Shown piece after piece: positions 7,962 to 55,825 of a stretch of DNA of 64,000 nt (positions within the stretch are counted from its first letter, which is position 1; the number at the start of each line of letters is the position of its first letter). Below the pieces are notes generated by a model that had not been told where the DNA came from, did not search any database, and saw only the letters and a program-made list of their open reading frames with translations. The stretch lies in contig OZ250153.1 of the NCBI GenBank assembly GCA_965237805.1, forward strand, positions 960,001 to 1,024,000, given 5' to 3'. The DNA comes from Gammaproteobacteria bacterium. Lineage in GTDB: Bacteria > Pseudomonadota > Gammaproteobacteria > JABABF01. Position numbers and translations under genes: made by a program.

Positions 7962-8897
7962 TCAGCGGACGATGGCTGGGTGCGGCTCCCTAGGATCGCC
8001 AAACAGGGGGCGGTGCGAGACCGGCGCTTTGCCGTCGATGTCCAAGATGCCGTACTCGGCACCCAACTCGGCACTGATGAAGGTGCGCCCAGACTTCGCC
8101 ATGCGCTCCGGGTCGCGGTAGAGTGCGGCGATGACGCGCCCGGTGAATTGCGGCCATTCAGCGAGCGGCTCCAGCTCGGCGTAGGCCTCTGGCTTTTCCT
8201 TGAAGACACGCTCGGTGCGCTCGGTGTGCAACAGGCCGAGCCACAGCGAGGCGCTGGCGACATCGTGCTCGCGCAGATCGACGGCCATATCGGCAGCGAA
8301 TTTATCGACCCCCGCTTTCTGTGCACCATAGGCCGGGCCATGCATATAGCAAGCGCCGCCGAAGGAAGAAGTAAAACAGATCAACCCCTCGCGACGTGCC
8401 ACCATCAACGGTGCCGCATAGTAGCTGGCGACATAGGCTGAACGCAGGCCGACATCGAGGATGTCGACCAAGGCCAAGGATTTTTCCCAGAATGGGGCGG
8501 CTTCGATCAGCTGATCATGGATGTCGGTGGCATTGTTGACCAAGATGTCTAGGCACCCCCCCGATTCGTCGGCGACGCGCTCGAATAGTGCGCTCACTTG
8601 GGTGTCGTCGGCGTGATCGCAAGCCACGGCCACACCGGTGCCAGAGCCGGTAGCACTGATTTCATCAGCAGTAGCGCCGATGGTGCCGGGCAGTGAGGCC
8701 ACGCCCTCCTCGACCGTGCGCCCGGTCACATAGACGGTGGCACCAGCAGCACCCAGCGCCAAGGCGATGCCACGCCCAGCACCGCGGCTGGCACCGGTCA
8801 CCACACAGATGCAACCGACCAACTGCTGTTCGGTGGTGGACGAATTGTCCTCTGCGCTCATATCATCGCCTGCGGCAATGCGATCCCTGCCCTCCAT
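7962..8897 (-). CDS. SDR oxidoreductase (DHRS1-like)
   Basis: TGASRGAG, LDILVNNA and YGAQK (YxxxK). Confidence 0.9.
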   Translation of the reverse strand: MEGRDRIAAGDDMSAEDNSSTTEQQLVGCICVVTGASRGAGRGIALALGAAGATVYVTGRTVEEGVASLPGTIGATADEISATGSGTGVAVACDHADDTQVSALFERVADESGGCLDILVNNATDIHDQLIEAAPFWEKSLALVDILDVGLRSAYVASYYAAPLMVARREGLICFTSSFGGACYMHGPAYGAQKAGVDKFAADMAVDLREHDVASASLWLGLLHTERTERVFKEKPEAYAELEPLAEWPQFTGRVIAALYRDPERMAKSGRTFISAELGAEYGILDIDGKAPVSHRPLFGDPREPHPAIVR

Positions 8898-8922
8898 GAT
8901 AACGGGAGCAGCGCGATGGCGG

Positions 8923-9465
8923 TCAGAGCGGCGGCGCGGTGCTGAGCGGCCATTGCATCAATGCGGTATGGCGGGCCCCCTCCGGGCGCAGCTCACTCTG
9001 GTACAGGGTGACGGCATGGCAGTCCAGCGACGGCAACGTCTGCGGTGACGGTAGTAGCGGCACCACCGCACCACGGCGCAGGCGAGCCAGCGTGATGTGG
9101 CCGCGGAAGCGCCGCCGCGGTGCTGGCAGGCCAGCGCGGTAAGCTGCGCCGCGCAGCGCCGCGGCCAAAGCCTCCAGCACATTCGGCGTAGCGGCCATCA
9201 CCGCCACCACTTGGGGGCGGGCAGTTGACGGAAACAACGCCGGACCGCTGAGCGGCACCGCACAGGAGTGGTGTCGCGCAATGACCTGCTCCGCGCAATA
9301 CATCAGTCGCTCGAGCTGTTGTGCCGGAGCGACTTCGATGAAGTGCAAAGTCAGGTGCAGCTGAGCTGGCGGCACCACACGCAGCGCGCCACCCAGCTCC
9401 GTCGCCAGCGCCGCCAGACGGCAGCGCAACACATCGTCGGGGACGACGGCAAAAAACAGACGCAT
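8923..9465 (-). CDS. thpR: RNA 2',3'-cyclic phosphodiesterase (2H family)
   Basis: MRLFFA start, the two 2H motifs HLTL and HITL, and LYQS. Confidence 0.85.
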   Translation of the reverse strand: MRLFFAVVPDDVLRCRLAALATELGGALRVVPPAQLHLTLHFIEVAPAQQLERLMYCAEQVIARHHSCAVPLSGPALFPSTARPQVVAVMAATPNVLEALAAALRGAAYRAGLPAPRRRFRGHITLARLRRGAVVPLLPSPQTLPSLDCHAVTLYQSELRPEGARHTALMQWPLSTAPPL

Positions 9466-9564
9466 GGCCTAAGTATAAGACGCTCGCCCCGCGCTACTGG
9501 CAACGGCTCCCGCACGACACCCAGCGACTATACTTCGCATCTCATAGCCCCCACGCCCATAAAT

Positions 9565-10830
9565 ATGAGCAAAAGCGACACCGCGCCCGTTCACCTCGAA
9601 GATTTGGATGCCCCCCAATTGGCCCCCGAACTGCGCCAAATGATGGCGGAGATGGTGGCCGCCTCCCCACACGCTGTCTACACCGAGCAGGCGGTGTTGG
9701 ATACTGCGCGCGAGCAGACCGGACTGGATGACTTCGGCGACGAATCCTTCCGCGTGCAGCTGCGCAAAGCGCTGGCAGCGATGGATGGCGATGACGGCCA
9801 GAGTGCTTTTGGCCGTCTGAGCAACTTCAATCTCATCGTGCGCAATGTCGCCAACCGACTACGCTTAGAGCAGCTAATCAGTCAGCATCCGGAGATCGAG
9901 CAGCTCAGCATCGACCGCCCGATCATCATCGCTGGATTGCCGCGTAGCGGCACCACCCATATGCACAACCTGTTGGGTGAGGATCCGCACTCGCGCTACC
10001 TGCCCTACTGGGAATCGATGGAGCCAGTGCCACCGCCAGAGGATCAAGCGGCAGCAGGCACGGAGGATCCGCGCATCACGCGCTGCCGCGAGGCCTTGGC
10101 AATGCAGGATGCGGTGCTGCCCTATTTCCGTAATATGCACGAGATGGTGCCAGAGCACGCCCATGAGGAGATCGAACTGGCGATGATGAACTGCTCCTCC
10201 ATGTTGTTTGAGACCTACGCCATGGTGCCGTCGTGGCGCGATTACTATCTGAGTTGCGATCAGGGTCCCAGCTACCGCTATATGCTGCGCGCCCTCAAGG
10301 CCGTGCAATGGCAGCGCGGCCCCAATGCTTGGGTGTTGAAGTCACCGCAGCACATCGAGCAACTGCCGACGCTGGCCGAAACCTTTCCCGATGCCACTTT
10401 TGTCTTGCCACACCGCGACCCGGTGGCAATCGTGGTGTCGCTGTCGACCATGCTGTCCTATACCTTCCGCCTGAGCCGCGACCCGGTGCGCCCGCAGGAG
10501 GTCGCTGCTTACTGGAGCGACCGCTTGCTACGCATGATCACGGCCTGTGTCCGCGACCACGACAAACTGCCACCTGCACGCGTCGTGGATGTGAACTTCG
10601 ACGACTTCATGGCCGACCCGATAGCGTTGATGGAGCGCATTTACCAAACGGCTGGGCGCGAGCTGAATGCCGAGTCCCGCCAAGCGCTGGAATCGTACCA
10701 AGCCAGCCACCAGCGCGGCCGCTTTGGCCGCGTCATCTACGACCCCGAGGCGCTGGGTTTGGATATCTCTAAGATGCGCGAGGATTTTCGCTTTTATATG
10801 GAACGCTTCGGACTACGCGAAGAATATTGA
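9565..10830 (+). CDS. Sulfotransferase family protein
   Basis: PIIIAGLPRSGTT (PAPS loop), WVLKSPQH and HRDP. ATG at 9565. Confidence 0.85.
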   Translation: MSKSDTAPVHLEDLDAPQLAPELRQMMAEMVAASPHAVYTEQAVLDTAREQTGLDDFGDESFRVQLRKALAAMDGDDGQSAFGRLSNFNLIVRNVANRLRLEQLISQHPEIEQLSIDRPIIIAGLPRSGTTHMHNLLGEDPHSRYLPYWESMEPVPPPEDQAAAGTEDPRITRCREALAMQDAVLPYFRNMHEMVPEHAHEEIELAMMNCSSMLFETYAMVPSWRDYYLSCDQGPSYRYMLRALKAVQWQRGPNAWVLKSPQHIEQLPTLAETFPDATFVLPHRDPVAIVVSLSTMLSYTFRLSRDPVRPQEVAAYWSDRLLRMITACVRDHDKLPPARVVDVNFDDFMADPIALMERIYQTAGRELNAESRQALESYQASHQRGRFGRVIYDPEALGLDISKMREDFRFYMERFGLREEY

Positions 10831-10834
10831 CGGC

Positions 10835-11587
10835 ATGGGATCGACCGCCGCCGCCACTGCGCCACCGCCGACACCTTCGCCGGAACAGTTGCTTGGCTTG
10901 GACGACAGCCATGTGCTGTCGGCCAGTGCCTTGCCCGGCCTCGGCGTGCCGCTGCATCCGGCGGCCGGGCGAGCTTTTCTGCGGTTGCGCACGGCGGCCA
11001 CCGCCGCTGGCTTCGATTTGTGTGCGCTCAGCGGACACCGCTCTTTTGCCCGCCAGTTGGCAATTGTCAACGACAAGGCCAACGGCCAGCGTGCGCTATT
11101 GGATGCCGACGAGCGACCGCTGAACAGCGCCAGCCTGCCCCCGCCCCAGCGCCTGCGTGCGCTGTTGCGCTGGTCGGCACTGCCCGGTGCCTCGCGGCAC
11201 CACTGGGGCAGCGAAACCGATGTCTGCGATGCCGCCGCACCGCCACAGGCGGGCTGCAAGCCACTGACGCTGGCCGAGGCAGAGGGCCCCTCGGCCGCGC
11301 TCCACGCTTGGTTGGATAGCCGTATCGCCGCAGATGATGCCGAGGACTTTGTGCGGCCCTATGCCGCCACCAAACTCGGCACCGACATCGCTACCGAGCC
11401 GTGGCATCTGAGCTACGCGCCGCTGTCATCGCGCTGCGGTGCCGCGCTCGCCGAGACTGGCGGCACGGGTCTGCGCAACTTGCTGGCAGTCTCAGATTTT
11501 GCGCTACGCGATGTATTGCTCTCCGACTGGGAGCAGCTCTACCTCGACTTCGTGGTACCGCACTGGTGCCCGCCGGATCAATCGTAG
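10835..11587 (+). CDS. M15 family D,D-carboxypeptidase (VanY-like)
   Basis: SGHRSFARQ, SRHHWGSETD zinc motif and EPWH. Confidence 0.8.
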   Translation: MGSTAAATAPPPTPSPEQLLGLDDSHVLSASALPGLGVPLHPAAGRAFLRLRTAATAAGFDLCALSGHRSFARQLAIVNDKANGQRALLDADERPLNSASLPPPQRLRALLRWSALPGASRHHWGSETDVCDAAAPPQAGCKPLTLAEAEGPSAALHAWLDSRIAADDAEDFVRPYAATKLGTDIATEPWHLSYAPLSSRCGAALAETGGTGLRNLLAVSDFALRDVLLSDWEQLYLDFVVPHWCPPDQS

Positions 11588-11650
11588 CGAAACCCGAGGC
11601 CGCACAACAGGCGGGTGGCCAAGCGGCGACCGTGCGACGCAGCCCGGCGC

Positions 11651-12064
11651 TCAGCTGCCCTCGAACATGCCGAGATCGTGCATATACTTGGTGTCCATCA
11701 TTTCCCAGACCTCGACAATCTGGCCATCACGAACCGTGAAGCGGAACATGTATTCGTTGCGGTAATCGCGCCCGGCACCCGTCTTAGCGGTCATCTCGAA
11801 ATGGGCGAAGGCGCTTTCCCCGTCGGCCACCACGACCCACAGATTGACCGACAAGGTGCTGAGATCGAACATGCCTACGCCGAGGCCCAGCATTTCCATA
11901 ATCGCCTGCTTTCCCGCAAAGGCGCTACCGAAGCGGTGATATGGCGGCAGGTGCCAGAGTGCATCTTCGGACATATCCGCCAAGAAATCGCCTCCGATAT
12001 TACCGCTCAAGGCGTCAAAATAGCGTTGCACCACGCGACGCGTATCCTCTGTATCGCTCATCAT
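11651..12064 (-). CDS. NTF2/SnoaL-like protein (ketosteroid-isomerase-like fold)
   Basis: VVQRYFDAL, YRNEYMFRFTVRDGQI..VWEMMDT. Confidence 0.8.
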   Translation of the reverse strand: MMSDTEDTRRVVQRYFDALSGNIGGDFLADMSEDALWHLPPYHRFGSAFAGKQAIMEMLGLGVGMFDLSTLSVNLWVVVADGESAFAHFEMTAKTGAGRDYRNEYMFRFTVRDGQIVEVWEMMDTKYMHDLGMFEGS

Positions 12065-12215
12065 TATTTCCCTAAGACACCAAGCTATTGCCGCAGTCTA
12101 GCACAGCACATCAGATGCAATAGCTGCGCAGCGGGCAGAGACGCCGTGTGGCCAGAAATTTTGCTTGACGGTTGCGATGGGCGACTTAAGTCATACCGCT
12201 ACGCGGTAAATTTGC

Positions 12216-12244
12216 TTGACGGTTACAGCAAATCGTATTAGAGT
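12216..12244 (+). promoter_or_regulatory. Sigma70 promoter for nrdB
   Basis: TTGACG (12216-12221), N17, TAGAGT (12239-12244), in an AT-rich intergenic region. Confidence 0.6.
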
Positions 12245-12425
12245 ATGTGGTTGTATCACACAATAATGAAAGTGTTATGGAGCGTGGTGAATGTTGTCGG
12301 TAGCGACGGCAATAAATATCCCTCTCCCGTCGACGACGGCGTTTTGCCGACGGTTCAAACACGCTGTGCTCTGCGCGCAAGAATCCCCCGACCAGCTGGC
12401 TCGCTGGCAAAAATCAAAAATACAC

Positions 12426-12455
12426 GCTGGCTCGACCGACCGAGGTCGAGCCAGC
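12426..12455 (+). other. Perfect 12-bp stem-loop in the nrdB leader
   Basis: GCTGGCTCGACC-gaccga-GGTCGAGCCAGC, ~30 nt before the nrdB ATG. Confidence 0.75.
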
Positions 12456-12486
12456 ACCACTGTTTCGGTATTGGAGAAATAAGGCG

Positions 12487-13650
12487 ATGACATTGAACTG
12501 GGAAGGACTAGAACGCGACCTCAGCCCCGCCACACCCCCGCCGGATTTGGCCGCTACAGTCAATGTGGCGGCGGTCGGCGAACGCTCGATGGCCGTGGGC
12601 AGCGCTGTCAGCGGCTTGGGGCCACTGGAGATGGGTGCCGGACGGGTGCGCGCCGAAGACAAGCGGATCATCAACAGCCGCGCCGATGTCAATCAATTGG
12701 TGCCGTTGCGCTACGACTGGGCGTGGCGCAAGTACCAAGAGGGCTGCGCCAACCACTGGATGCCACAAGAGATCAACATGGCCGCCGACATCGCCCTGTG
12801 GCGCGACCCGGCGGGGCTGAGCGACGACGAGCGCCAACTGGTCGAACGCAGTCTGGGCTTCTTCTCCACCGCCGATTCACTGGTGGCCAACAATCTGGTG
12901 CTGGCGGTCTACCGCCATATCACCAACCCCGAGTGCCGCCAGTACCTCCTGCGCCAAGCATTCGAGGAGGCCATTCACACCCACGCCTACCAGTACTGCA
13001 TCGAATCCTTGGACATGGATCAGAGCGCGGTCTTCAACATGTACCGCGAGGTGCCGTCAATCGCAGACAAGGCTTCGTGGGCACTGGAATACACCCAGGA
13101 ATTGTCCAACCCCAACTTCTGTACCGGCACCCTGCAGGCCGATCAACTACTACTGCGCAACCTGATCGCCTTCTACGCTGTCTTGGAGGGCATCTTTTTC
13201 TACTGTGGCTTCTCGCAAATCCTATCGCTGGGGCGACGTAACAAGATGGTCGGCGTCGCCGGACAATTTCTCTACATCCTGCGCGACGAATCGATGCATC
13301 TGAACTTCGGCATTGATGTGATCAACCAGATCAAACGCGAAAACCCCTATCTGTGGACCCCAGAATTCCAGCGCGAGGCTAGCCGCATGATCATCGAGGG
13401 CACCGCACTCGAAGTGGCTTACGCCCGCGACTCGATGCCGCGCGGTGTCCTCGGCATGAATGCGGCCAGCATGGAGGAGTACCTGCACTTCATCGCCAAT
13501 CGCCGGCTCAGCCAGCTGGAGCTGCCGCAGCATTTCACCGCACAGAACCCCTACCCATGGCTGAGTGAGATGCTCGACAACCGCAAGTTGGAGAATTTCT
13601 TCGAAACGCGGGTCAAAGACTACCAAGTTGGCGGGGCATTGAACCGCTGA
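12487..13650 (+). CDS. nrdB: Class Ia ribonucleotide reductase beta subunit (NrdBz-type)
   Basis: [11 protein letters not shown] (Asp ligand), EEAIHTHAY (radical Tyr present), LEGIFFY, RDESMH and NFFETRV. Confidence 0.95.
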
Positions 13651-13734
13651 GCGAGCACACGCCACCCAGCGCAATTCCATTTGGTGCCGCGCTGTCAGCG
13701 GCTCCGCACCCGCAATTCAGGACCCCGTAGCGGT

Positions 13735-14475
13735 ATGGCCAAGTCGCCCATCGCCGACGACGAGCGCTTGGTGCATGCACTCGACCTGCCGACTGCCGAG
13801 CTGGCGCGCCGTCATGTACAGCGTCTCGGTGAGGCGGTGCGATTCTACAAAGTAGGGCTCGAACTATTTGTTGGTGGCGAGGGTACAGCGCTGGTCGACT
13901 GGCTCTTGGAGCGAGGGCTGAAGGTCTTTCTAGATCTCAAGTTTTACGATGTGCCGCGCACCGTGGCCGCCGCCGTGCGGCAGTTGCGCGGGAGAGGCAT
14001 CCATTTTCTCAGCGTGCACGGCAACGATGACATATTGCGCGCCGCCATAGAGGAGAAGGGCTCGACCGGCATCTTGGCGGTCACCGTGCTGACCAGCTTG
14101 GATCAAGGCGACCTCGCGCAACTGGGTTTGGACTGTGATCCAGCCGCCCTCGCGCTATCGCGAGCACAACGGGCACGAGCCATCGGCTGTGACGGTGTCG
14201 TCGCCTCAGCCCAAGAGGCTGCGGCTCTGCGCAGCGCGCTGGGTGATGATTGCTTGCTGTTCACCCCCGGCATCCGGCCGGCGCAGCAGCACGAACGGGA
14301 CGATCAAAAACGCACGGCAGACACTGCGGCCGCCATCGCGGCGGGAGCTGACTATATCGTCGTCGGGCGACCGATCCACGCCGCCGAGGATCCACTGGCC
14401 GCTGTCGCCGACATCCAAGCGCAGATCCGTGCAGCGCTGGCCGCCCGTCACTGCGACGAGACCAAGCTCAGCTGA
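13735..14475 (+). CDS. pyrF: Orotidine-5'-phosphate decarboxylase
   Basis: ALD, KVGLEL, FLDLKFYDVPRT, TPGIR, DDQKR and VVGRPI. Confidence 0.95.
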   Translation: MAKSPIADDERLVHALDLPTAELARRHVQRLGEAVRFYKVGLELFVGGEGTALVDWLLERGLKVFLDLKFYDVPRTVAAAVRQLRGRGIHFLSVHGNDDILRAAIEEKGSTGILAVTVLTSLDQGDLAQLGLDCDPAALALSRAQRARAIGCDGVVASAQEAAALRSALGDDCLLFTPGIRPAQQHERDDQKRTADTAAAIAAGADYIVVGRPIHAAEDPLAAVADIQAQIRAALAARHCDETKLS

Positions 14476-14490
14476 GCCCAGCCGCCACCC

Positions 14491-17400
14491 TCACTGACAG
14501 GCCTCGCAGTCCGGCGCGTCCAACAGACAGGTAGCATCCGCACTGCTGCCGATTGCAACCGCATTCAACTCGCTGCGATCTACCGTGGCCTTCTCAGAGC
14601 TGGTCGCACCGCGCGAGCGCAGGTAATAGGTGGTCTTGATGCCCATCAGCCAAGCGTTGCAGTAAATCAATGACAGGGTGTTGAGGGAGATGTCTTTGGG
14701 CACATAGAGGTTCAGCGATTGCGACTGGTCGATCCACTTCTGCCGCCGCGATGCGGCCTCGATCAGCCACTGCGGCGAGACCTCGTGGGCAGTGGCGTAG
14801 AGGGTGCGCAAGGCCTCCGGCACGCGGTCGATTTTACGCAGGCTGCCCTCGTAGAACTTGAGGTCGTTGATCATCACCTCATCCCACAGCCCGAGCGATT
14901 TCAGTTCCCGCACCATATAGGAATTGATCACTGTGTATTGCCCAGAGAGGTTCGAGACCACATAGAGATTGCTGAAAGTGGGCTCGATCGACGGGCTGAC
15001 GCCGACGATGTTGGCGATGGTCGCCGTGGGGGCGATGGCCATCACATTGGAGTTGCGCATGCCTTGGCTCGTGACGCGCTCGCGCAGACTGTCCCAGTCC
15101 ATCGTCTGGCTGGTGTCGACCTCCAATTGATCATCAGAGCGCTGTTCGCGCAACAATTCCATCGAATCGATCGGCAGGATGCCCCGGCTCCACAAAGAGC
15201 CTTTGAAGCTCTCGTAGGCACCGCGCTCTAGCGCCAAATCCGAGGAGGTGCGAATGGCGAAGTAGCTGATCACCTCCATGGCGCGGTCGGCAAAATCCAC
15301 AGCTGCTTGGCTGGCGTACGGGATGCGCTGAAGCAACAAGGCATCCTGAAAGCCCATCATGCCCAAGCCCACCGGACGGTGACGACTGTTCGAGCGCTGC
15401 GCCGCCTGCACGGCGTAGTAATTGATGTCGATGACGTTGTCCAACATGCGCACCGCCGTCGTCACCGTGCGCTCGATCTTTTCGATATCCAAAACCAACG
15501 GCGCATCGCCCATCGGCGTCTCGCCCGCCTGCGGCTCGCGCAGGTGATTAGCCAAGTTCAGCGAGCCGAGATTGCACACCGCGATCTCTTCGGCATCCGT
15601 TTCGGCAGATGTGTTCAGCGTGATTTCGGTGCACAGATTCGAGGAGTGCACCACGCCGCAGTGCTGCTGCGGCGAGCGCAGGTTGCAGCTGTCCTTGAAA
15701 GTGACCCACGGCGTGCCAGTCTCAAACAGCTGGGTGATGATCTTGTGCCACAGATCCTCGGCTGGCAGCTTGCGGTGCTGCCCCATCTCGCCACGCTCGG
15801 CGCTCGCTTCGTACTCTTGATAGCGACGCTTGAAAGCAAGGCCGCACAGATCGTGCAAATCGGCCACCTCTTCGGGCGAGAACAGCGTCCAGTCGGCTTT
15901 TGCCATCACCCGTTCGAGGAATAGATCCGGAATCCACAGTGCCGTGAAGATGTCGTGTGTGCGACGGCGCTCATCGCCAGTGTTCTTGCGCAGCTCGAGA
16001 AAAGATTCCACATCCAAATGCCAAGGCTCTAAGTAAGCACACAGCGCACCGAGCCGCTTACCGCCTTGATCCACCGCCACCGCCGTGTCGTTGGCCACTT
16101 TGAGGAAAGGGATGATACCGCCAGAGCGTCCGTTGGTGCCGGCGATGCGCGCACCGATGGCCCGCACTGGTGTCCAGTCGTTGCCCAAGCCACCGGCCCA
16201 CTTCGACAGCATGGCGTTGTCCCGGATAGCTCCGAAGATACCATCCAAGTCGTCGGGTACCGTGCTCAGGAAGCATGAGGACAACTGCGGGTGCCTAGTG
16301 CCAGCATTGAACAGCGTCGGTGTCGAGCACATGTGGTCAAAGGAGGATAACAGCCGGTAGAAGTCCGCCGCACGCGCCGTACGCTCTTCCTCTTTCTCGT
16401 GCAGGGCGAGCCCCATGGCAACGCGCATCAGGAACAGCTGCGGCAGCTCGATGCGTCGGTCGGCGGCATCCTGCAGAAAATAACGATCGCAGAGGGTCTG
16501 CAGGCCGAAGATGGTAAATTGCAGATCCCGCTCTGGCGCCAGCTCCTGCCCCAGCTGCTGCAAATCGAAAGCCCGCAGTTCCGGGCTGAGCCTTTGCAAT
16601 TCGATGCCCCGCTCGACGAAAGCTGCCAAAGCGGCGGGATACAGCGCCGCTATCTGCTGCTGATCCACGCCGCCGAAACCGGCGCTGAGCGGGCTACGCG
16701 CCGACGACAGTTCCCCCTCCATGCCCAGCGCAACTAACACCTCCCGCCGCAGCTGGGAGAGCCGCAGTCGAGCGGCAACATAGCTGTAGTTGTTCTCCTG
16801 CTCGACCAAGGGACGAGCGCTGATAATCATCGCCTCGACCAAGTTGGCCTCTTCGATACCATCGTGGATTTCGCGCAACACACGCTCTAGCAACAACTCG
16901 GCACTGGTGTCCTCCAAGCCCGCGCAGGCCTCTTGCAGGCAGGCGACCAGTACGGCACGACCCAACGCCCGCCGTTGCCCGAGAGCATCCACCACTTCCA
17001 GCGGTCGCCGACCACCCTGCCCGTCATCTAGCCACTGGGCGGGTTCGTCTTCTGCCGCGCCCTTATCATCAGCCAGCGTCTCGCCGTCGTCCTGTTCCCA
17101 TTGCGCCTGCTGCTGCGCTTCGTGTTGCTTGCGTGTAATGGCGCGTTCTTCCCGGTAGAGCACATAGCGGCGCGCCACTTGGTGGTGGGCGCCACGCATC
17201 AACGCCAATTCCACCTGGTCTTGGATTTCCTCGATATCCAAAGCTCCGCCCGAAGGCAGGCGGCGCATAAAGATGGCCAGGATCTGCTGACTCAGCTGCT
17301 GCACCAACTCCCGCACCCGAGCCGAGCTGGCTGCCGCCTCGCCCTCGACGGCGAGAAACGCTTTGGTGATCGCAATAGCAACCTTGCTCTGATCGTAGGG

Positions 17401-47773: not shown

Positions 47774-50700
47774 CTAGTGGTACACCGGTGTCAGGTCGGC
47801 GTAGCCCGCCTTGACCCCCTTGGGCTTGAACAGCCGGATGTGGTCTATTTTCATGTAGATGGGGTCGAGCCCAGTATGCAAGTGAGCAGCGGGCATATTG
47901 AGGCGCAGGAGCAATGGGGAGTGGGGGATGCCGCATGTGATGTAGGGGTTGCGATTGACGCTGTGCGGATATTGATTGCACTCCACTCCTATAGGATTTG
48001 GATGAAATTGATTGCTGCCATTATTGATGAACTTGCCGTTAAAAAAGAATTTGTAGCCCGCTGGCGTTATCTCGTAACCCATTTTGTATGATTTCTTGGT
48101 GGCCGGATCGTTATCATTGATGCCCCATTTCTGGCCGTAGACCCGCGTGGCCCCTGCAATGGGCCAAGACCACGAGTCGCCCAATGCGACCGCGTCCGCT
48201 CTGCCTACCGCATCTAGCCCCCCGAGATGGTTGACTAGGAACTGTAAGCCCCCTCCGCTCCCGCCAGCAGTATATATGGTTGTTTCGTGATTTTCAAAAA
48301 GATCCACCTCGGTTCCTTGCAGCTCCAACTGCTCGCGCGCCGTGTTCGGGAACATGAAGACCGGCATCCCCACCATCGCGGTGGAGTTTGGCACCGAGCG
48401 TTGCGCCGTGCTGCCCGCAGCCCCCTCAGCCAACCAGTAGGCCCTTACGTCAGCTCCCACAACAGCTGGATAGCGCGCATGCAAAACAAGCCCCGAAGCG
48501 GGCGTGTCCGAACCATAGACGATCGGCGCTTCCATGGCTGGCAGGGTGTCCGCGACCTGCACTTCGAAGTAGCCGTATTTGAACTCCACCTCGCTGGCGA
48601 GAGTGGCCGCAATATGTGAGCAACCCGCCGTCTGAGTGCTGGTGCAGGGCAATGCGGAATAGCGAGGGGGACGCCGCGCCACGCCCAGCCACAACTCGCC
48701 GTCCCGCACATCCAGCGCACGAGTCCATGCCGTCGGGTAAAGTTGCTCAATCAATGCGTGCCGATCGCCATACCGCTCCTCATACCATGCTGGCAGCAGG
48801 CCGATGCGCCGCAGGTATTCGATGACGGTTTCGGCCTCCTCGTCGTAGTCGTTGAACTCTGCAGACCACACCAGTTCGTAGTGCTCTTTGGCATAGCTGA
48901 GCCCGGACTGCAGATCGGCGAGGATGGCTGCCCGCTCGGCATGGTCCAGCGCTGAGCGCCGGACATCCAGCGCTTCCGGCATCCACGCCCGCATCCAGCA
49001 TTGCCGCTTCTCTGCCCGGCTCATCTGGTCGAAGGCCGCCGATACCATGTAGGGTGAGTGCGACGCGCAGGGATTCAGACTGAAACTGCCAACAAAGGCC
49101 AGTGTGCCCTCCAGCACCGCATCCTCGTAAACCAACCGCAACGACAGCTCCGCGCCCCTCAGCAGCTGCTGTTGCGAGGCCGTCAGCGTCGTATCCGTCC
49201 AGATGCCCCCTTGCCGATCGATCCGGAAGTGGAAGGTCTGCCCCCCTCTCGTCAACTCCGCCACCATCAACTCCCAACGGAGCGGCGCACGCTTCACCTC
49301 ATAGCGCGCCAGCAATCCAGTGATATCCGAGGCGGCTGGCAAATAGACGCTTTGCCGCATCGTGTGAAACTCGGAGTAGGGCGAGTCCTTCACCGTGATC
49401 AACAGTTCGGTCTCCACCACTTCCGAGCTGTTAGCCACCCGCAAGGTCACGCGGTGCTCTCGCCACTGCTCGTAATCCAACTCCCCCTCAATGCGCAGCC
49501 AATGGCTCTCCCCTTGCTGTTCGATACTGAAAGCCGTCGCAGGCAGCGCCGACTCCACCGATCCCAGCGACCAGCTCAACTCGTCGCCACCCGCATCCCA
49601 TGCCAGCAACGGCCCGCAGCGGCGCACCGCAGACTCGCCATCGCGCTCCTCAAAAGCACAGCTGGTCGGCCCTGAGTAAACCGGTAGCGCATGACCGTCA
49701 TCCAGCACCCGCAGCAGCAACCGCTGTTCGGCAGTCTCGCCCCAGCGATCGGTCACCGTCAGCACCAAGCGGTGTAGAGAGGACTCCTCGTAGTCCAGCC
49801 GCCCCGCTATCTGCAGAGCCGCCGTCTGATCCGCTGTACTCACCGGCACCACCGAGAAAGCGCCAGCCCCCAACACCGAATCCTCCACCGCGACCGAGAA
49901 ATGCGTGTAATCCAAGGACGCTGGCCAAGCGTCCACCGCGCTCAGCCCCCCGACGACGGCAGTGCTCTGACCCGCCCCTTCCAAGACGGAATACTCTGTC
50001 CAACCGGTGTAGACCGGATCGGGGCGGTCGCGCACAAGTAGCAGCAGTGAAACCTTGGTGGGCTCCCCCTGCGCATCGGTCACCGTCAGCACCAAGCGGT
50101 GCTGCGAGGACTCTTCGTAATCCAAGGCCGGCGAGGCCTTCAGATAGGGGGTGAACTGATCGCCGCTCCACCGCACGATCGTGAAGCCATCAGCCGCCAG
50201 CACCGAGTCCTCCGCCACGACCGAGAAATGCGTATAGCCCACAGCCGCCCCAGCCGCATCCTGCGCCGACAGCCCGCCAATCCAGCGCGCTCCCTCGTCG
50301 ACAGAAATCTCTGTCAAGCCGGTATAGACCACCGCCCCGGGGCGGTCGAGTACCCGCAGCAGCAACCGCTGTTCGGCAGTCTCGCCCCAGCGATCGGTCA
50401 CCGTCAGCACCAAGCGGTGTAGAGAGGACTCCTCGTAGTCCAGCCGCCCCGCTATCTGCAGAGCCGCCGTCTGATCCGCTGTACTCACCGGCACCACCGA
50501 GAAAGCGCCAGCCCCCAACACCGAATCCTCCACCGCGACCGAGAAATGCGTGTAATCCAAGGACGCTGGCCAAGCGTCCACCGCGCTCAGCCCCCCGACG
50601 ACGGCAGTGCTCTGACCCGCCCCTTCCAAGACGGAATACTCTGTCCAACCGGTGTAGACCGGATCGGGGCGGTCGCGCACAAGTAGCAGCAGTGAAACCT

Positions 50701-53700
50701 TGGTGGGCTCCCCCTGCGCATCGGTCACCGTCAGCACCAAGCGGTGCTGCGAGGACTCTTCGTAATCCAAGGCCGGCGAGGCCTTCAGATAGGGGGTGAA
50801 CTGATCGCCGCTCCACCGCACGATCGTGAAGCCATCAGCCGCCAGCACCGAGTCCTCCGCCACGACCGAGAAATGCGTATAGCCCACAGCCGCCCCAGCC
50901 GCATCCTGCGCCGACAGCCCGCCAATCCAGCGCGCTCCCTCGTCGACAGAAATCTCTGTCAAGCCGGTATAGACCACCGCCCCGGGGCGGTCGAGTACCC
51001 GCAGCAGCAACCGCTGTTCGGCAGTCTCGCCCCAGCGATCGGTCACCGTCAGCACCAAGCGGTGTAGAGAGGACTCCTCGTAGTCCAGCCGCCCCGCTAT
51101 CTGCAGAGCCGCCGTCTGATCCGCTGTACTCACCGGCACCACCGAGAAAGCGCCAGCCCCCAACACCGAATCCTCCACCGCGACCGAGAAATGCGTGTAA
51201 TCCAAGGACGCTGGCCAAGCGTCCACCGCGCTCAGCCCCCCGACGACGGCAGTGCTCTGACCCGCCCCTTCCAAGACGGAATACTCTGTCCAACCGGTGT
51301 AGACCGGATCGGGGCGGTCGCGCACAAGTAGCAGCAGTGAAACCTTGGTGGGCTCCCCCTGCGCATCGGTCACCGTCAGCACCAAGCGGTGCTGCGAGGA
51401 CTCTTCGTAATCCAAGGCCGGCGAGGCCTTCAGATAGGGGGTGAACTGATCGCCGCTCCACCGCACGATCGTGAAGCCATCAGCCGCCAGCACCGAGTCC
51501 TCCGCCACGACCGAGAAATGCGTATAGCCCACAGCCGCCCCAGCCGCATCCTGCGCCGACAGCCCGCCAATCCAGCGCGCTCCCTCGTCGACAGAAATCT
51601 CTGTCAAGCCGGTATAGACCACCGCCCCGGGGCGGTCGAGTACCCGCAGCAGCAACTCTTGCTCACGGTAGGCTCCCCGCGCATCCGATACCCGCAACAC
51701 CAGGCGGTGGAGCGAGGATTCCTCGTAGTCCAAGACCCGCAAAGCCCGCAGATAGGGGGTGAACTGATCTTGACTCCACGGCACGATCGTGAAACCCTCA
51801 GCCCCAAACACTGAGTCCTCCACCCGTACTTCAAAATGCGTCCAGCCCAAGGCGACGCCATATTGATCCGTCGCACCCAACCCGCCGACTGCACGCACCC
51901 CCTCCAGCGCCGAGTGCTCTGTCCAACCCGTATAGCTGGGCGGCACGCTGTCATCTGGTAGCACCCGCAATGTCAATGGTACCAGCACATGACCGCCGCC
52001 ACCACCGGCAATATCGTCGACGCGCAACACCAAGCGGTGCAGCGAGGACTCGGCATAGCTCAACACCTGCGAGGCTCGCAGATAGGGGGTGAACTGATCG
52101 CCGCTCCACCGCACGATCGTGAAGCCATCAGCCCCCAGCACCGAGTCCTCCACCGAGACCGAGAAATGCTCCCAACTCAAGGCCGTGCCATCCTCACCCT
52201 CAGCGCTCAGGCCGCTGAGCCAACGCGAGTTTTTGGCAGCGAGCTCCGTCCACCCCGTGTAGAAGGGGCCGGGACGATCGAGCACCCGCAGCAGCAATGC
52301 CTGCTCGTGGTAGGCTCCCCGTGCATCCGATACCCGCAACACCAAGCGGTGTAGCGAGGACTCCTCGTAGTCCAAGACCCGCGAGGCCTCTAGCACCGGC
52401 GTGAAACCATCGCTGGGCGCAGCCACCACCGCAAAGCCGTTTGCACCCAGCACCGAGTTCTCCACCTGCAGCGCAAAGCGCGTGTAGTCCAAGGCGACGC
52501 CGTACTGATCCGTCGCGCTCAACCCATCGACCAAACGCGCACCCTCTAGCACCGAGAGCTCCGTCTGGCCAGTGTAGCTGGGCGGCACACTGTCATCGGA
52601 CAGCACCCGCAACGTCAATGGCACCAACACATAGTCACCACCGCCGCCAACAATGTCGTCGACGCGCAACACCAAGCGGTGCAGCGAGGACTCGGCATAG
52701 CTCAGCACCTGCGAGGCTCGCAGATAGGGGGTGAACTGATCGACGCTCCACGGCACGATCGTGAAGCCATCAGCCGCCAGCACCGAGTCCTCCACCGAGA
52801 CCGAAAAATGCTCCCAACTCAAGGCCGTGCCGCCCGCATCTTCAGCGCCCAAACCGCCGAGCCAACGCGAGTTTTTGGCGACGAGCTCCGTCCATCCCGT
52901 GTAGAAGGGGCCGGGGCGATCAAGCACCCGCAGTGTCAAGGTGGTCTGCACATAGTCGTCGCCACCGGCAATTCCGTCCCCATCGACGCGCAGCACCAGG
53001 CGATGCAAAGCGGACTCCGCATAGTACAGAACCCGCGAGGCTTGCAGATAGGGGGTGAACTGATCGCCGCCCCACGGCGCCACCGTGAAGCCCTCAGCCC
53101 CCAACACAGATTCCTCTACTGAGAGCGAGAAGTGCCGCCATCCCAAGGCATTGCCCTGAGTATCCTCAGCGGCCAGCCCGGCAATCCAGCGCCGACCCTC
53201 GGTGATAGAAATTTCCTGCAAACCGGTGTAGCGCGGCGGCTGGTCGTCGTCGTCCAGCACCCGGATCAGCCACTGCACATCGACATAGTCCCCCTGCGCT
53301 GCCGTGATGCGACCCACCACCCGGTGCAGCGAGGAAGCCAAGTAATACAGCGGCCCCTCAATCCGCAGCGTCACCGAGGCCGGATTCGCCGCATCCGGTA
53401 CCAGCGAAAACGCCGCCGAGCCCAACACCGAGTCCACCGACCACAACTGGTAATGCGAGAGGCCCAACTCGATACCGTCAGCGTCCAAGGCCACGATACG
53501 ACCGGCGGACGCGCCGCCACCCAAGATGCGCGTCGGTGCCCCCCCCTCCAGCAACTCGAACTCCAAATCACCCACATAGCGCGGCGGGGCACCGCCGACA
53601 TCCAACACCCGCAACTCCCCCACCCAATCGAAGTGATCTCCCAGTGCGTCCGTCGCCCGCACTGTCACTTCGTGGCGCGTCGAACTCTCGTAGTCCAACG

Positions 53701-55300
53701 CCACATCCAACAGCGTCAGGCCCCACTGCTGCGCCGCACCTGCCACGTGCGGATACAGCGCCATGCGCACCGAGCCCGCGCGCAGCGGCGGTGCCACCCC
53801 CGTCACCTCCAAACTCACTGTGCCCCCCTCGTGATCCGACACCGACAGCGGGCCGCAAAAGTGAAACGATGCCGTCTCCTCCATCACGCAGTCCCAATCC
53901 CCAGACACCACTGGCAAGTGGTTCACCGACAACTGCAATATTCGTTCCGTGCGGTTCCCCGCGCTGTCCCGAAGCTCCAGCGCCAGCGCGTAACTGTCGC
54001 CTGCAAACTCCGCCCCCGCCAGCGCCCACAACCGACCGCTCTCGCTGTCCACCCGGAACAGGCCCTCCTCGGCACCGGCCGCCAAGTGGTAACTCAGCGC
54101 ACCGCCATCCGGATCCATCCCGCTCAGCCGACCCAGAGAGCGATCTACCGACAGCCGCCTCGGCAGCACCGACACTTGCAGGCCCGCGCCCAACATCGGC
54201 CCGCCCAGGTCGCCGACCTCTCTCACCGCCGCCCGCAGCCGCAACAACACCTCCTTCGCATTCAAATACGGCAGACCCAGCACGACCGACTCCGGCTGCA
54301 AGCCAGCACGGTGCGCCGTGTAAACAATGTAGCGACCGATCAGCAGACCGTCATCCGCCCCTACCGCCCCATCTCCCGTCACATCCCACAGCCCCTCCAC
54401 CGCCGCCACTGGCGCACGCCGCAGCTTGTCCATCAACACCAACTCCGCATCCAAACTGTCGGTACGACCGTCTTTGTTTACATCCAAATCGCCGCCCGAA
54501 CCCCGCACCAGCAACTGCACCTGCGCTGGTGCCAACGCCGCGCCGCCCACCTGCTCCACCGTCAACTCCACGCTCCCATGTAGTGCGTCCTGATCGTGCA
54601 ACACCGCCGTCAACTCCACGCTCAGCGTGCCGTAGGCACCACCGATCAAAGTCGTCTCGCCAACTATCCCCCCGTGGAAGGATGGTGTCGTCCCAGTGGA
54701 TGTCACCTTCTGCGACACCCGTACCCGGTAACTGCCATCCACCTCCACCACGCAGGGCAGGGTCGCAGCGCGCAAATGGCACGTCGCGTCCCCCGCCACC
54801 GCATGCACCGCCAGCTTCACCGTCGAGCGCTCGCCATGCCCCACACGACCACCCATCACCACCACCAGCAAACGCTCCGCCGTCACATCCACCGCTGGCC
54901 CCCTCGCCGCCGACAACCAGCCGCCCAAGGACACCGAAAACTCCCCCGCACCGCCATCGCTGGTCGGCCAATAGCGCAACTGCAAGCGCGCCATATGCGG
55001 CGCTCCGGTCAACGCTTCCAACTGCACGCCGGACACTCGACCCCGATCCACCTGCACCGACAGGCTGGGAGCCAACGCGGCTATATCCACCGACGTATCC
55101 ACGTCGCCTGAAGCGTCAGATACCCACAACTTCCAACTCAGCAGTGCGCCGCCCAACTCGCGCGACGCTGTCTCCTGTGCGCTGAACTCCGCCGATAACT
55201 GCAAGGCAGGCGGCGCTGCCCACGCCCCATTCACCAGTAGCGGAGACGGCAACAGCACAGCTAGCACAGCCAGCACAAGACCCACTCGAAGCACAGACAT
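47774..55300 (-). CDS. Giant secreted multidomain protein (~2,500 aa): signal peptide, dockerin-like module, ~15 cadherin-like domains, C-terminal GH16-like domain
   Basis: MSVLRVGLVLAVLAVLL..AWA signal; DVNKDGRTDSLD and DVTGDGAVGADD loops; repeated LDYE..HR..L.V.D and RVLD..P.YTG units; LVWSAEFND, FKYGYFEV, EVDLFE and MKIDHIRLF. Confidence 0.8.
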   Translation of the reverse strand: MSVLRVGLVLAVLAVLLPSPLLVNGAWAAPPALQLSAEFSAQETASRELGGALLSWKLWVSDASGDVDTSVDIAALAPSLSVQVDRGRVSGVQLEALTGAPHMARLQLRYWPTSDGGAGEFSVSLGGWLSAARGPAVDVTAERLLVVVMGGRVGHGERSTVKLAVHAVAGDATCHLRAATLPCVVEVDGSYRVRVSQKVTSTGTTPSFHGGIVGETTLIGGAYGTLSVELTAVLHDQDALHGSVELTVEQVGGAALAPAQVQLLVRGSGGDLDVNKDGRTDSLDAELVLMDKLRRAPVAAVEGLWDVTGDGAVGADDGLLIGRYIVYTAHRAGLQPESVVLGLPYLNAKEVLLRLRAAVREVGDLGGPMLGAGLQVSVLPRRLSVDRSLGRLSGMDPDGGALSYHLAAGAEEGLFRVDSESGRLWALAGAEFAGDSYALALELRDSAGNRTERILQLSVNHLPVVSGDWDCVMEETASFHFCGPLSVSDHEGGTVSLEVTGVAPPLRAGSVRMALYPHVAGAAQQWGLTLLDVALDYESSTRHEVTVRATDALGDHFDWVGELRVLDVGGAPPRYVGDLEFELLEGGAPTRILGGGASAGRIVALDADGIELGLSHYQLWSVDSVLGSAAFSLVPDAANPASVTLRIEGPLYYLASSLHRVVGRITAAQGDYVDVQWLIRVLDDDDQPPRYTGLQEISITEGRRWIAGLAAEDTQGNALGWRHFSLSVEESVLGAEGFTVAPWGGDQFTPYLQASRVLYYAESALHRLVLRVDGDGIAGGDDYVQTTLTLRVLDRPGPFYTGWTELVAKNSRWLGGLGAEDAGGTALSWEHFSVSVEDSVLAADGFTIVPWSVDQFTPYLRASQVLSYAESSLHRLVLRVDDIVGGGGDYVLVPLTLRVLSDDSVPPSYTGQTELSVLEGARLVDGLSATDQYGVALDYTRFALQVENSVLGANGFAVVAAPSDGFTPVLEASRVLDYEESSLHRLVLRVSDARGAYHEQALLLRVLDRPGPFYTGWTELAAKNSRWLSGLSAEGEDGTALSWEHFSVSVEDSVLGADGFTIVRWSGDQFTPYLRASQVLSYAESSLHRLVLRVDDIAGGGGGHVLVPLTLRVLPDDSVPPSYTGWTEHSALEGVRAVGGLGATDQYGVALGWTHFEVRVEDSVFGAEGFTIVPWSQDQFTPYLRALRVLDYEESSLHRLVLRVSDARGAYREQELLLRVLDRPGAVVYTGLTEISVDEGARWIGGLSAQDAAGAAVGYTHFSVVAEDSVLAADGFTIVRWSGDQFTPYLKASPALDYEESSQHRLVLTVTDAQGEPTKVSLLLLVRDRPDPVYTGWTEYSVLEGAGQSTAVVGGLSAVDAWPASLDYTHFSVAVEDSVLGAGAFSVVPVSTADQTAALQIAGRLDYEESSLHRLVLTVTDRWGETAEQRLLLRVLDRPGAVVYTGLTEISVDEGARWIGGLSAQDAAGAAVGYTHFSVVAEDSVLAADGFTIVRWSGDQFTPYLKASPALDYEESSQHRLVLTVTDAQGEPTKVSLLLLVRDRPDPVYTGWTEYSVLEGAGQSTAVVGGLSAVDAWPASLDYTHFSVAVEDSVLGAGAFSVVPVSTADQTAALQIAGRLDYEESSLHRLVLTVTDRWGETAEQRLLLRVLDRPGAVVYTGLTEISVDEGARWIGGLSAQDAAGAAVGYTHFSVVAEDSVLAADGFTIVRWSGDQFTPYLKASPALDYEESSQHRLVLTVTDAQGEPTKVSLLLLVRDRPDPVYTGWTEYSVLEGAGQSTAVVGGLSAVDAWPASLDYTHFSVAVEDSVLGAGAFSVVPVSTADQTAALQIAGRLDYEESSLHRLVLTVTDRWGETAEQRLLLRVLDDGHALPVYSGPTSCAFEERDGESAVRRCGPLLAWDAGGDELSWSLGSVESALPATAFSIEQQGESHWLRIEGELDYEQWREHRVTLRVANSSEVVETELLITVKDSPYSEFHTMRQSVYLPAASDITGLLARYEVKRAPLRWELMVAELTRGGQTFHFRIDRQGGIWTDTTLTASQQQLLRGAELSLRLVYEDAVLEGTLAFVGSFSLNPCASHSPYMVSAAFDQMSRAEKRQCWMRAWMPEALDVRRSALDHAERAAILADLQSGLSYAKEHYELVWSAEFNDYDEEAETVIEYLRRIGLLPAWYEERYGDRHALIEQLYPTAWTRALDVRDGELWLGVARRPPRYSALPCTSTQTAGCSHIAATLASEVEFKYGYFEVQVADTLPAMEAPIVYGSDTPASGLVLHARYPAVVGADVRAYWLAEGAAGSTAQRSVPNSTAMVGMPVFMFPNTAREQLELQGTEVDLFENHETTIYTAGGSGGGLQFLVNHLGGLDAVGRADAVALGDSWSWPIAGATRVYGQKWGINDNDPATKKSYKMGYEITPAGYKFFFNGKFINNGSNQFHPNPIGVECNQYPHSVNRNPYITCGIPHSPLLLRLNMPAAHLHTGLDPIYMKIDHIRLFKPKGVKAGYADLTPVYH
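49707..51656. repeat. Three tandem 645-bp copies (215 aa, two cadherin-like domains each), apparently identical
   Basis: Units start at 49707, 50352 and 50997, with 15 bp of a fourth at 51642. Shadow ORFs in the track recur at +645. Confidence 0.92.
51660..52930. repeat. Older, imperfect two-domain duplication (period 642 bp); boundaries approximate
   Basis: PFYTGWTEL[VA]AKNSRW...VPPSYTG units. AGAAGGGGCC occurs at 52261 and 52903. Confidence 0.8.
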
Positions 55301-55825
55301 CGTCTGCAAAACCAATCTCAATACTTAGCGCGGGAACACCGCGCCACGGAGATCCTCACAGTCACTGGCAGACACAACGACCAGCCAGCTCCATGCCGCT
55401 CCGCGACTTAGGCGGCCAGACCGCATGGCTTTGGGACATACATAATATGCCGTGATCCCCCCAAAAAATCTATTTACTATAACACCACACCGTGGACCAT
55501 ACAAGCGACAATGTGAAGAATGATCGCATAGCGGCATGCCGCAAAATTCTATATTGCAAGGTGTGGCAAAGCAGCTGTAGCGAGGAGTCGCCTCAGGGGC
55601 GGAACAACTCTAACCAAACAATGTGGTGCCTTGTCAAAGCCATTCTTCGCGCCAAGCTTGGCCTTAGCTTGAGGCAACCGACCCCCTTAAAGGAGGCATC
55701 ATCAAGGATCGTGACGGCAACATTTCAACACCAATTGACATGCTAACATAGCGTGGATGCGGTCAATAGCACCAAGCAATTATGGGAAGATTGGCAACAA
55801 CTCTGCCAGCGCTCAGGGGCGCGGC

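Follow-up and report, generated by a model that had tools for sequence, protein, structure and literature searches.

What does an uncultured gammaproteobacterium with a small genome do with a protein of some 2,500 residues in which a long series of cadherin-like repeats separates a dockerin-like module from a domain that resembles a polysaccharide-cleaving enzyme? The question is raised by a single open reading frame (ORF) in a 64,000-nt stretch of DNA (positions 960,001–1,024,000 of contig OZ250153.1, assembly GCA_965237805.1, lineage JABABF01; hereafter the window). The initial annotation, made from the letters of the window alone, had pictured a surface rod that projects a GH16-like head. 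Our analysis supports a related picture, which we consider on balance probable: a secreted, modular, possibly tethered, retaining endo-β-glycanase.

The ORF of ~2,500 aa is real. Its frame stays open over 2,515 codons (Table 1), and a public protein collection calls the same gene as P0002, with 2,500 aa. In a same-genus metagenome-assembled genome, G001, the orthologous gene is broken up among short contigs; one part covers the N-terminus (73% identity) and another the cadherin-like units and the C-terminal tip (59% identity over the tip). Because the N-terminal part begins with MSVFR at the equivalent place, the ATG at 55300 (M8) is the likely true start. Residues are numbered here from the TTG.

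Sequence relationship of the tip to GH16

The tip finds no Pfam family at E ≤ 10 and nothing in NCBIfam (best E 0.38). It opens with a helical, Cys-bearing extension (residues ~2085–2141), followed by LVWSAEF at 2150, FKYGYFEV at 2247, EVDLFE at 2338–2343 and MKIDHIRLF at 2490; all motifs quoted in the initial annotation are thus present, with EVDLFE exactly where it had been read. GH16 domains for comparison came from genome scans with PF00722, which detected GH16 in 10 of 251 genomes of the class and in 69 of 401 genomes of the phylum, and 12 domains were cut from these loci. A tip-family profile of six rows (the query, its G001 orthologue, two distant full-length relatives and two fragments) was aligned to the 12 domains by hhalign with a probability of 96.7 (P 3.4e-10, score 77.3); the top score among 21 decoys, one reversed and 20 column-shuffled, was 17.2. 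With a greedier setting, hhalign follows the GH16 domain colinearly from end to end, and EVDLFE falls on EIDI-E. Split by subgroup, the probability is 96.7% for β-bulge laminarinase-like domains (n = 10), 86.4% for galactanase-like domains (n = 2) and 2.4% for lichenase-like domains (n = 19). Judged by these profiles, the similarity of the tip lies with the β-bulge (ExDxxE) branch of GH16.

MAFFT alone puts LVWSAEF, YGYFEV, EVDLFE and IDHIRLF on the GH16 blocks. An alignment of 37 sequences (6 tip, 31 GH16) contains four nearly invariant columns, two of which are E2338 and E2343 (E254 and E259 in domain numbering). By analogy to GH16, the candidate nucleophile is E2338, with E2343 as the candidate acid/base and D2340 as the helper.

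Predicted structure of the tip

An AlphaFold model built from the six tip-family rows alone has a predicted local distance difference test score (pLDDT) of 41.8. In a Foldseek search with this model, 42 of the 42 rows listed are of GH16 type (E 2e-6 to 3.6e-4; template modelling score by target ≤ 0.52), a model-based result that is independent of the GH16 alignment. The addition of 31 GH16 domains to the alignment gave a second model with a pLDDT of 58.7, a predicted template modelling score of 0.64 and confident core strands; EVDLFE lies on modelled strand 254–267 (domain numbering), and the segments of low confidence are 178–233 and 260–319. When the second model was compared by VIA-align with 48,161 chains, ranks 1–26 were all GH16 (Z 11.1–13.5), with ~200 residues aligned at a root-mean-square deviation of 3.4–5.1. 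All 43 rows listed by Foldseek for the same model are likewise of GH16 type; for a few structural entries this assignment is presumed from their titles.

The best structural matches are 1ups (an endo-β-galactosidase), 7fgz, 8va4 (GH16_3), 8xph (a laminarinase) and 6t2r (a mucin O-glycanase), and the top matches also span carrageenases and porphyranases. With all of these tied within ~1 Z, the structure does not reveal the substrate.

The earlier reading of the tip as a GH16-type jelly-roll that carries ExDxxE on the GH16 catalytic strand is thus borne out by hhalign and by the models, and we regard GH16-type fold and ancestry as very probable. The tip shares with the β-bulge branch a jelly-roll fold (in the predicted models), ExDxxE with both Glu, and the colinear blocks W..EF, YG.E, E.D..E, H, E.TP and IDyIRv. 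Unlike GH16 domains, it is missed by PF00722, measures 431 aa versus ~250, and carries the helical Cys-bearing extension, three insertions of 20–60 aa and a conserved tail of the pattern K-P-K..GY.D.TP.Y.

Rarity and conservation of the tip family

An exhaustive HMMER search over 1.84 billion representative proteins returned five clusters at E ≤ 1e-3: the giant protein itself, two C-terminal fragments, P0005 (872 aa) and P0006 (737 aa). Identity to the query over the tip alignment is 29% for P0005 and 28% for P0006. Among 61 related genomes, the tip was found in the source genome and in G001, and no further carrier appeared. A pattern scan of 185,579 species genomes with the tip alignment hit one locus, again in G001, and the same scan of JGI metagenome contigs hit none; a word-index protein search with the alignment yielded two members, both already in the family. 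In a search of sequencing datasets for the tip, two DNA datasets, both from one study, and no RNA dataset were listed.

The four full-length members (28–59% identity) read EVDLFE, EMDLFE, EMQLFE and EYQLME, so that both Glu are present in 4/4. The tip contains six Cys in three sequence-adjacent pairs; five of the columns are kept in 4/4 full-length relatives and C2226 in 3/4. It forms the extreme C-terminus in all four and ends in a shared tail, ...KP...Y.D.TP.Y. In P0005 the tip is preceded by two CARDB stretches, and both P0005 and P0006 appear, from their sequences, to begin with lipobox-like signals (LVAC and AGGC).

Cadherin-like array

The repeats are cadherin-like, as had been proposed: Pfam Cadherin (PF00028) matches nine stretches with E 1.5e-51 and 173.2 bits against a cut-off of 28.8. 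Our own segmentation, combined with a hidden Markov model (HMM) built from the units, gives 15 units. The earlier count of 15–16 therefore holds at its lower value; a 16th unit at residues 1980–2084 is ruled out since this segment does not match the unit HMM. Instead, these residues form a connector of ~105 aa, which is conserved in the G001 orthologue and finds no Pfam match at E ≤ 10.

Canonical cadherins bind Ca between domains through DRE-type motifs and a DxNDN linker. LDYE occurs 10 times in the giant protein and DYE is kept in 10/15 units; DxND is found nowhere in the protein, hence in 0/15 linkers, which read VLD-RPG, VLD-DD or VRD-RPD. With these counts the Ca-rigidified rod of the initial annotation is not established, and partial Ca binding by the units is possible.

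A double unit of 645 nt, which the initial annotation does not mention, stands three times in tandem and makes up units 9–14. It was found by a repeat search; Tandem Repeats Finder, whose period limit of 500 is shorter than 645 nt, gave no tandem repeat. Copies 2 and 3 match base for base, and copy 1 has 2 deviating bases, at its edge. Either the array expanded very recently or, with lower probability, the assembly created the copies. Arrays of this kind can change length by recombination, and stalk length may therefore vary between cells or strains.

N-terminal module and dockerin-like pair

The N-terminal module has a β-rich region, two Ca loops that form a dockerin-like pair, and a tail with the conserved pattern LGLPYL..EV..RL. 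The paired loops near the N-terminus that had been noticed earlier were recovered as two 12-residue loops, DVNKDGRTDSLD at residue 280 and DVTGDGAVGADD at residue 313. Dockerin_1 (PF00404) is the only Pfam match of the module; it scores 25.7 bits (E 1.3e-5) on the N-terminal piece and 21.6 bits, under the cut-off of 22.9, on the whole protein. Five other frames of the source genome give weak dockerin-like matches.

The pair resembles the type I dockerin of cellulosomal enzymes in its two loops, each of 12 residues and rich in Asp/Asn, which lie at a distance of 33 residues, and in the score of the N-terminal piece, just over the HMM cut-off. It differs from that dockerin in that no cohesin was found in the genome at E ≤ 1, and in lying inside a larger lineage-specific module and at the N-terminal end.

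Among 301 genomes of the class, the module was found in the source genome alone, and no match was found in the protein collection among proteins of 200–637 aa. G001 holds four copies, on contigs C106 (L087), C168 (L088), C3 (L089) and C219 (L086): the orthologue with 73% identity and three paralogues with 33–36%. The module is C-terminal in the C106 and C168 proteins, whose reading frames end ...RL.AIY. To judge from its distribution, it looks like a portable, genus-specific module. Since it moves between carriers and between their ends, it behaves like a docking or targeting handle.

In the source genome, a frame of 240–255 codons (G000:C1:277944-278201, L027) lies just upstream of a giant of 2,346 codons that ends in a SPOR domain. 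It is 40% identical over 85 residues to the first β-region of the module.

Signal peptide, export and anchoring

The Sec signal with the predicted cut AWA↓A, already noted in the initial annotation, is present at residues 33–36, preceded by a basic n-region and a hydrophobic core of ~18 residues (read directly). The AWA site is kept in the G001 orthologue (AHSAWA↓SS). The giant protein contains 12 Cys, all in sequence-adjacent pairs, a pattern that fits an extracytoplasmic, disulfide-bonded protein. Because a 712-aa secretin gene adjoins a T2SS-F gene at 213–216 kb of the genome, type II secretion is plausible, and the export route is probably Sec followed by type II secretion. Two kinds of anchor were ruled out: a lipoprotein anchor, since there is no Cys near the signal cut, and a C-terminal sorting tail such as GlyGly-CTERM, since the protein ends ...TPVYH inside the conserved tail of the tip.

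Proposed function and alternative explanations

In the reading that we favor, the cleavable Sec signal would deliver the protein to the periplasm and type II secretion would carry it out of the cell. The mature N-terminus would then be the genus-specific module with its dockerin-like EF-hand pair, a candidate docking handle for a partner other than cohesin. The fifteen cadherin-like β-sandwich units may function as a long spacer, may bind glycans, or may do both; a cadherin unit measures ~4.5 nm if extended, and 15 such units would span 60–70 nm. At the far end, the tip would be a deeply divergent β-bulge GH16 jelly-roll glycanase with three predicted disulfides and large insertions. It would act by double displacement as a retaining endo-β-glycanase or transglycosylase, on a β-linked glucan, galactan or glycoconjugate. 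We lean towards the tip being an active glycanase. In this reading the ORF, the order of its domains, the homology of the tip to GH16 and the retained motif are shown, and the export route, tethering, catalysis and substrate are inferred.

Several results weigh against this reading. PF00722 has no match in the whole protein at E ≤ 1 or in a 546-aa tip piece at E ≤ 10, six-frame scans of the source genome with the same family give 0 candidates, and sequence and profile searches of the PDB (phmmer, hmmsearch) are empty save for a chance match to DsbA (E 0.48). Confidence is low in ~37% (second model) to 73% (first model) of the residues, and the GH16 matches of the second model are not independent because GH16 rows stand in its alignment. 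Lectin-type jelly-rolls appear in VIA from Z 10.6, close behind the last GH16 entry (Z 11.1). In place of the helper Asp the two distant relatives carry Gln, a change that could point to weak or altered chemistry. Outside the tip, no membrane or lipid anchor is visible in the giant protein, cohesin (PF00963) has 0 matches at E ≤ 1 in the 97.4%-complete genome, where a divergent cohesin-like fold is still possible, and substrate-utilisation genes are absent among the neighbors of the gene. The dockerin anchor of the initial annotation is not supported by these last searches for a cohesin and for an anchor, and for the host matrix pictured there the analysis gave no sign of a host and no evidence for or against. 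An alternative is an adhesin, in which a GH16-derived tip acts as a non-catalytic lectin head on a long Ca-dependent stalk that binds a surface, a biofilm matrix or another cell. A domain too divergent for the GH16 HMM, with Gln for the helper Asp in 2/4 full-length relatives, large insertions around the cleft strands and lectin-type folds nearly as good in VIA, could be such a head, and the nearest whole-protein relatives are giants of cadherin/RTX type that have no enzyme domain. However, a pure binding module needs no catalytic Glu, and the two Glu are kept in 4/4 members down to 28% identity and are nearly invariant against the 31 GH16 domains; we find the lectin unlikely.

A glycanase could also work free of the cell. 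Released into the medium, it might use its cadherin-like units as carbohydrate-binding modules on insoluble polysaccharide; one paper, to go by its title, reportedly treats cadherin domains in this way. The cleavable-looking signal agrees with release, as does the lack of a lipobox, a sorting tail and a cohesin in the genome, and a large GH16 protein with multiple carbohydrate-binding modules is known in the class (2,571 aa, five CBM_4_9 stretches). On the other hand, the N-terminal module is common to at least four G001 proteins and sits at either end of them, which suits a docking handle better, and the two distant relatives appear to be lipid-anchored at the N-terminus with the tip distal. 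We would sooner doubt than accept the free enzyme, and we hold a cell-tethered stalk, too, to be less likely than not. The repeat number itself might be an artifact of assembly, with a shorter true gene, as the 645-nt copies are so alike (two at 100% identity, the third with 2 deviating bases). Yet the frame is open through all copies, the genome is one contig of 1.73 Mb, and with one copy the protein would still have 11 units and the same ends; we consider such an error very unlikely.

Genomic context and other giant proteins

The source genome is a single 1.73-Mb contig and is 97.4% complete. The neighbors of the giant gene encode ParE, a luciferase-like oxidoreductase, SnoaL, a glyoxalase, an aminotransferase, TrpC, TrpD and TrpE; these are housekeeping genes and give no hint at the function of the giant protein. 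GC is 0.61–0.65 in the gene and 0.59–0.67 in the window. As the two are equal, there is no compositional sign of horizontal transfer, which is ruled out on this measure. The giant gene and the aminotransferase gene are transcribed divergently, with an intergenic region of 435 nt between them (window 55322–55756). A simple scan found no sigma-70-like site in this region, and a promoter and terminator scan gave signal at or below shuffle expectation.

The genome contains seven giant ORFs including this gene, six of 1,561–2,516 codons and one of 6,151, which together occupy ~3% of its length. Of the other six (Table 1), two end in a SPOR domain, two combine M23 peptidase with CARDB arrays and one has CARDB only; the 6,151-codon frame gives no meaningful Pfam match. 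One protein of 2,160 aa has two M23 stretches and 11 of CARDB; another, of 1,896 aa, combines M23, CARDB and Flg_new_2. Both follow the same design principle as the protein studied here, and differ from it in their enzymes and repeat types.

Table 1. Coordinates of the giant gene, its parts and the other giant frames. Positions are those of the window unless a contig is named.
Feature	Position	Strand	Description
Whole ORF	47774..55321	minus	2,515 codons from TTG; stop 47774-47776
Sec-type signal peptide, M8-A35	55217..55300	minus	predicted cut AWA↓A, read from sequence
Lineage-specific N-terminal module, residues 36-379	54185..55216	minus	β-rich region, dockerin-like pair and tail
Dockerin-like pair of 12-residue Ca loops, residues 280-332	54326..54484	minus	Pfam PF00404
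15 cadherin-like units, residues 380-1979	49385..54184	minus	89-117 aa each
Units 9-14, a 645-nt double unit repeated three times in tandem	49700..51634	minus	repeat search
Connector, ~105 aa, residues 1980-2084	49070..49384	minus	without fold assignment; conserved in G001 orthologue
Tip, residues 2085-2515 (431 aa)	47777..49069	minus	GH16-like jelly-roll core, large insertions
EVDLFE, E2338/D2340/E2343	48293..48310	minus	candidate nucleophile, helper Asp, acid/base
Other giant frame	G000:C1 258520-264264		
Other giant frame	G000:C1 270561-277601		
Other giant frame	G000:C1 1248534-1255016		
Other giant frame	G000:C1 1331632-1336317		
Other giant frame	G000:C1 1336431-1342121		
Other giant frame	G000:C1 1599972-1618427		

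Comparison with known systems

Two groups of polysaccharide-degrading enzymes in print come close to the giant protein. Saccharophagus degradans 2-40 encodes Lam16A, a 1,707-aa protein with the layout GH16/CBM6x2/TSP3x4/COG3488, and Lam81A, with the layout lipobox/CAD/GH81/FN3x2, and its genome contains dockerin-like motifs without a cellulosome (PMC2386152). Like the giant protein, these laminarinases are gammaproteobacterial secreted β-glycanases fused to Ca-binding or cadherin-like modules. In contrast, their GH16 domain is canonical and N-terminal, and the single cadherin-like module goes with GH81; neither a 15-unit array nor an N-terminal dockerin-like module is part of the laminarinases as laid out there (PMC2386152). 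The GH107 endo-fucoidanases Fhf1 and MfFcnA, secreted marine polysaccharidases, likewise combine a catalytic domain with repeated cadherin-like β-sandwiches, described there as one to three cadherin-like Ig domains; they differ in that the catalytic domain belongs to another family and is N-terminal, the repeats number 1–3 versus 15, and a Bacteroidota C-terminal sorting domain is present (PMC7698502).

Cadherin is absent from three giant GH16 proteins taken from genomes of the same phylum; their further modules are CBM_4_9, RTX with Big_13 and Big_6, and CBM30, respectively. A 2,571-codon, lipoprotein-like frame with canonical GH16 and five CBM_4_9 stretches occurs in the same class (L071, G573:C1:1375000-1393000, 8491-16203 on the plus strand). 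A whole-protein search returned six proteins, none with GH16, and full-text literature searches, as far as the texts were accessible, found no description of GH16 combined with cadherin-like repeats. The initial annotation had called the architecture unfamiliar from gammaproteobacteria. That stands for the exact combination, within the sequences and literature covered; it does not extend to the wider type, of which the Saccharophagus GH16/TSP3 and GH81/cadherin-like proteins and the GH107 enzymes are published relatives. The design principle is already known and every part belongs to a known type; the exact build, from the N-terminal dockerin-like handle through 15 cadherin-like units to a cryptic GH16-like tip at the C-terminus, and the tip family are new.

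Implications

These findings overturn nothing in current knowledge. The tip is a relative of GH16 that is invisible to standard annotation, with four full-length members and two fragments in 1.84 billion representatives. Since both catalytic Glu and five of the six paired Cys are kept in the four full-length members, it is an inexpensive target for expression, and a well-studied enzyme clan could gain from it a new subfamily or a new specificity. A portable dockerin-like module without cohesin bears on an old question, that of the partners of non-cellulosomal dockerin-like modules. Within the set of giant ORFs, three others bear an enzyme or CARDB repeats along an extended chain, a hint that tethered enzymes outside the cell hold a central place in how the organism lives.

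As a long shot, one may picture a genome-reduced organism that lives by long tethered enzymes, the GH16-like tip and the M23-on-CARDB set, docked through the dockerin-like handle to a non-cohesin receptor and breaching the glycan wall or coat of prey, host or neighbor. If this were true, the tip would be the founding member of a new family, related to GH16 but of new specificity, and the handle would define a new docking system in the Gram-negative envelope.

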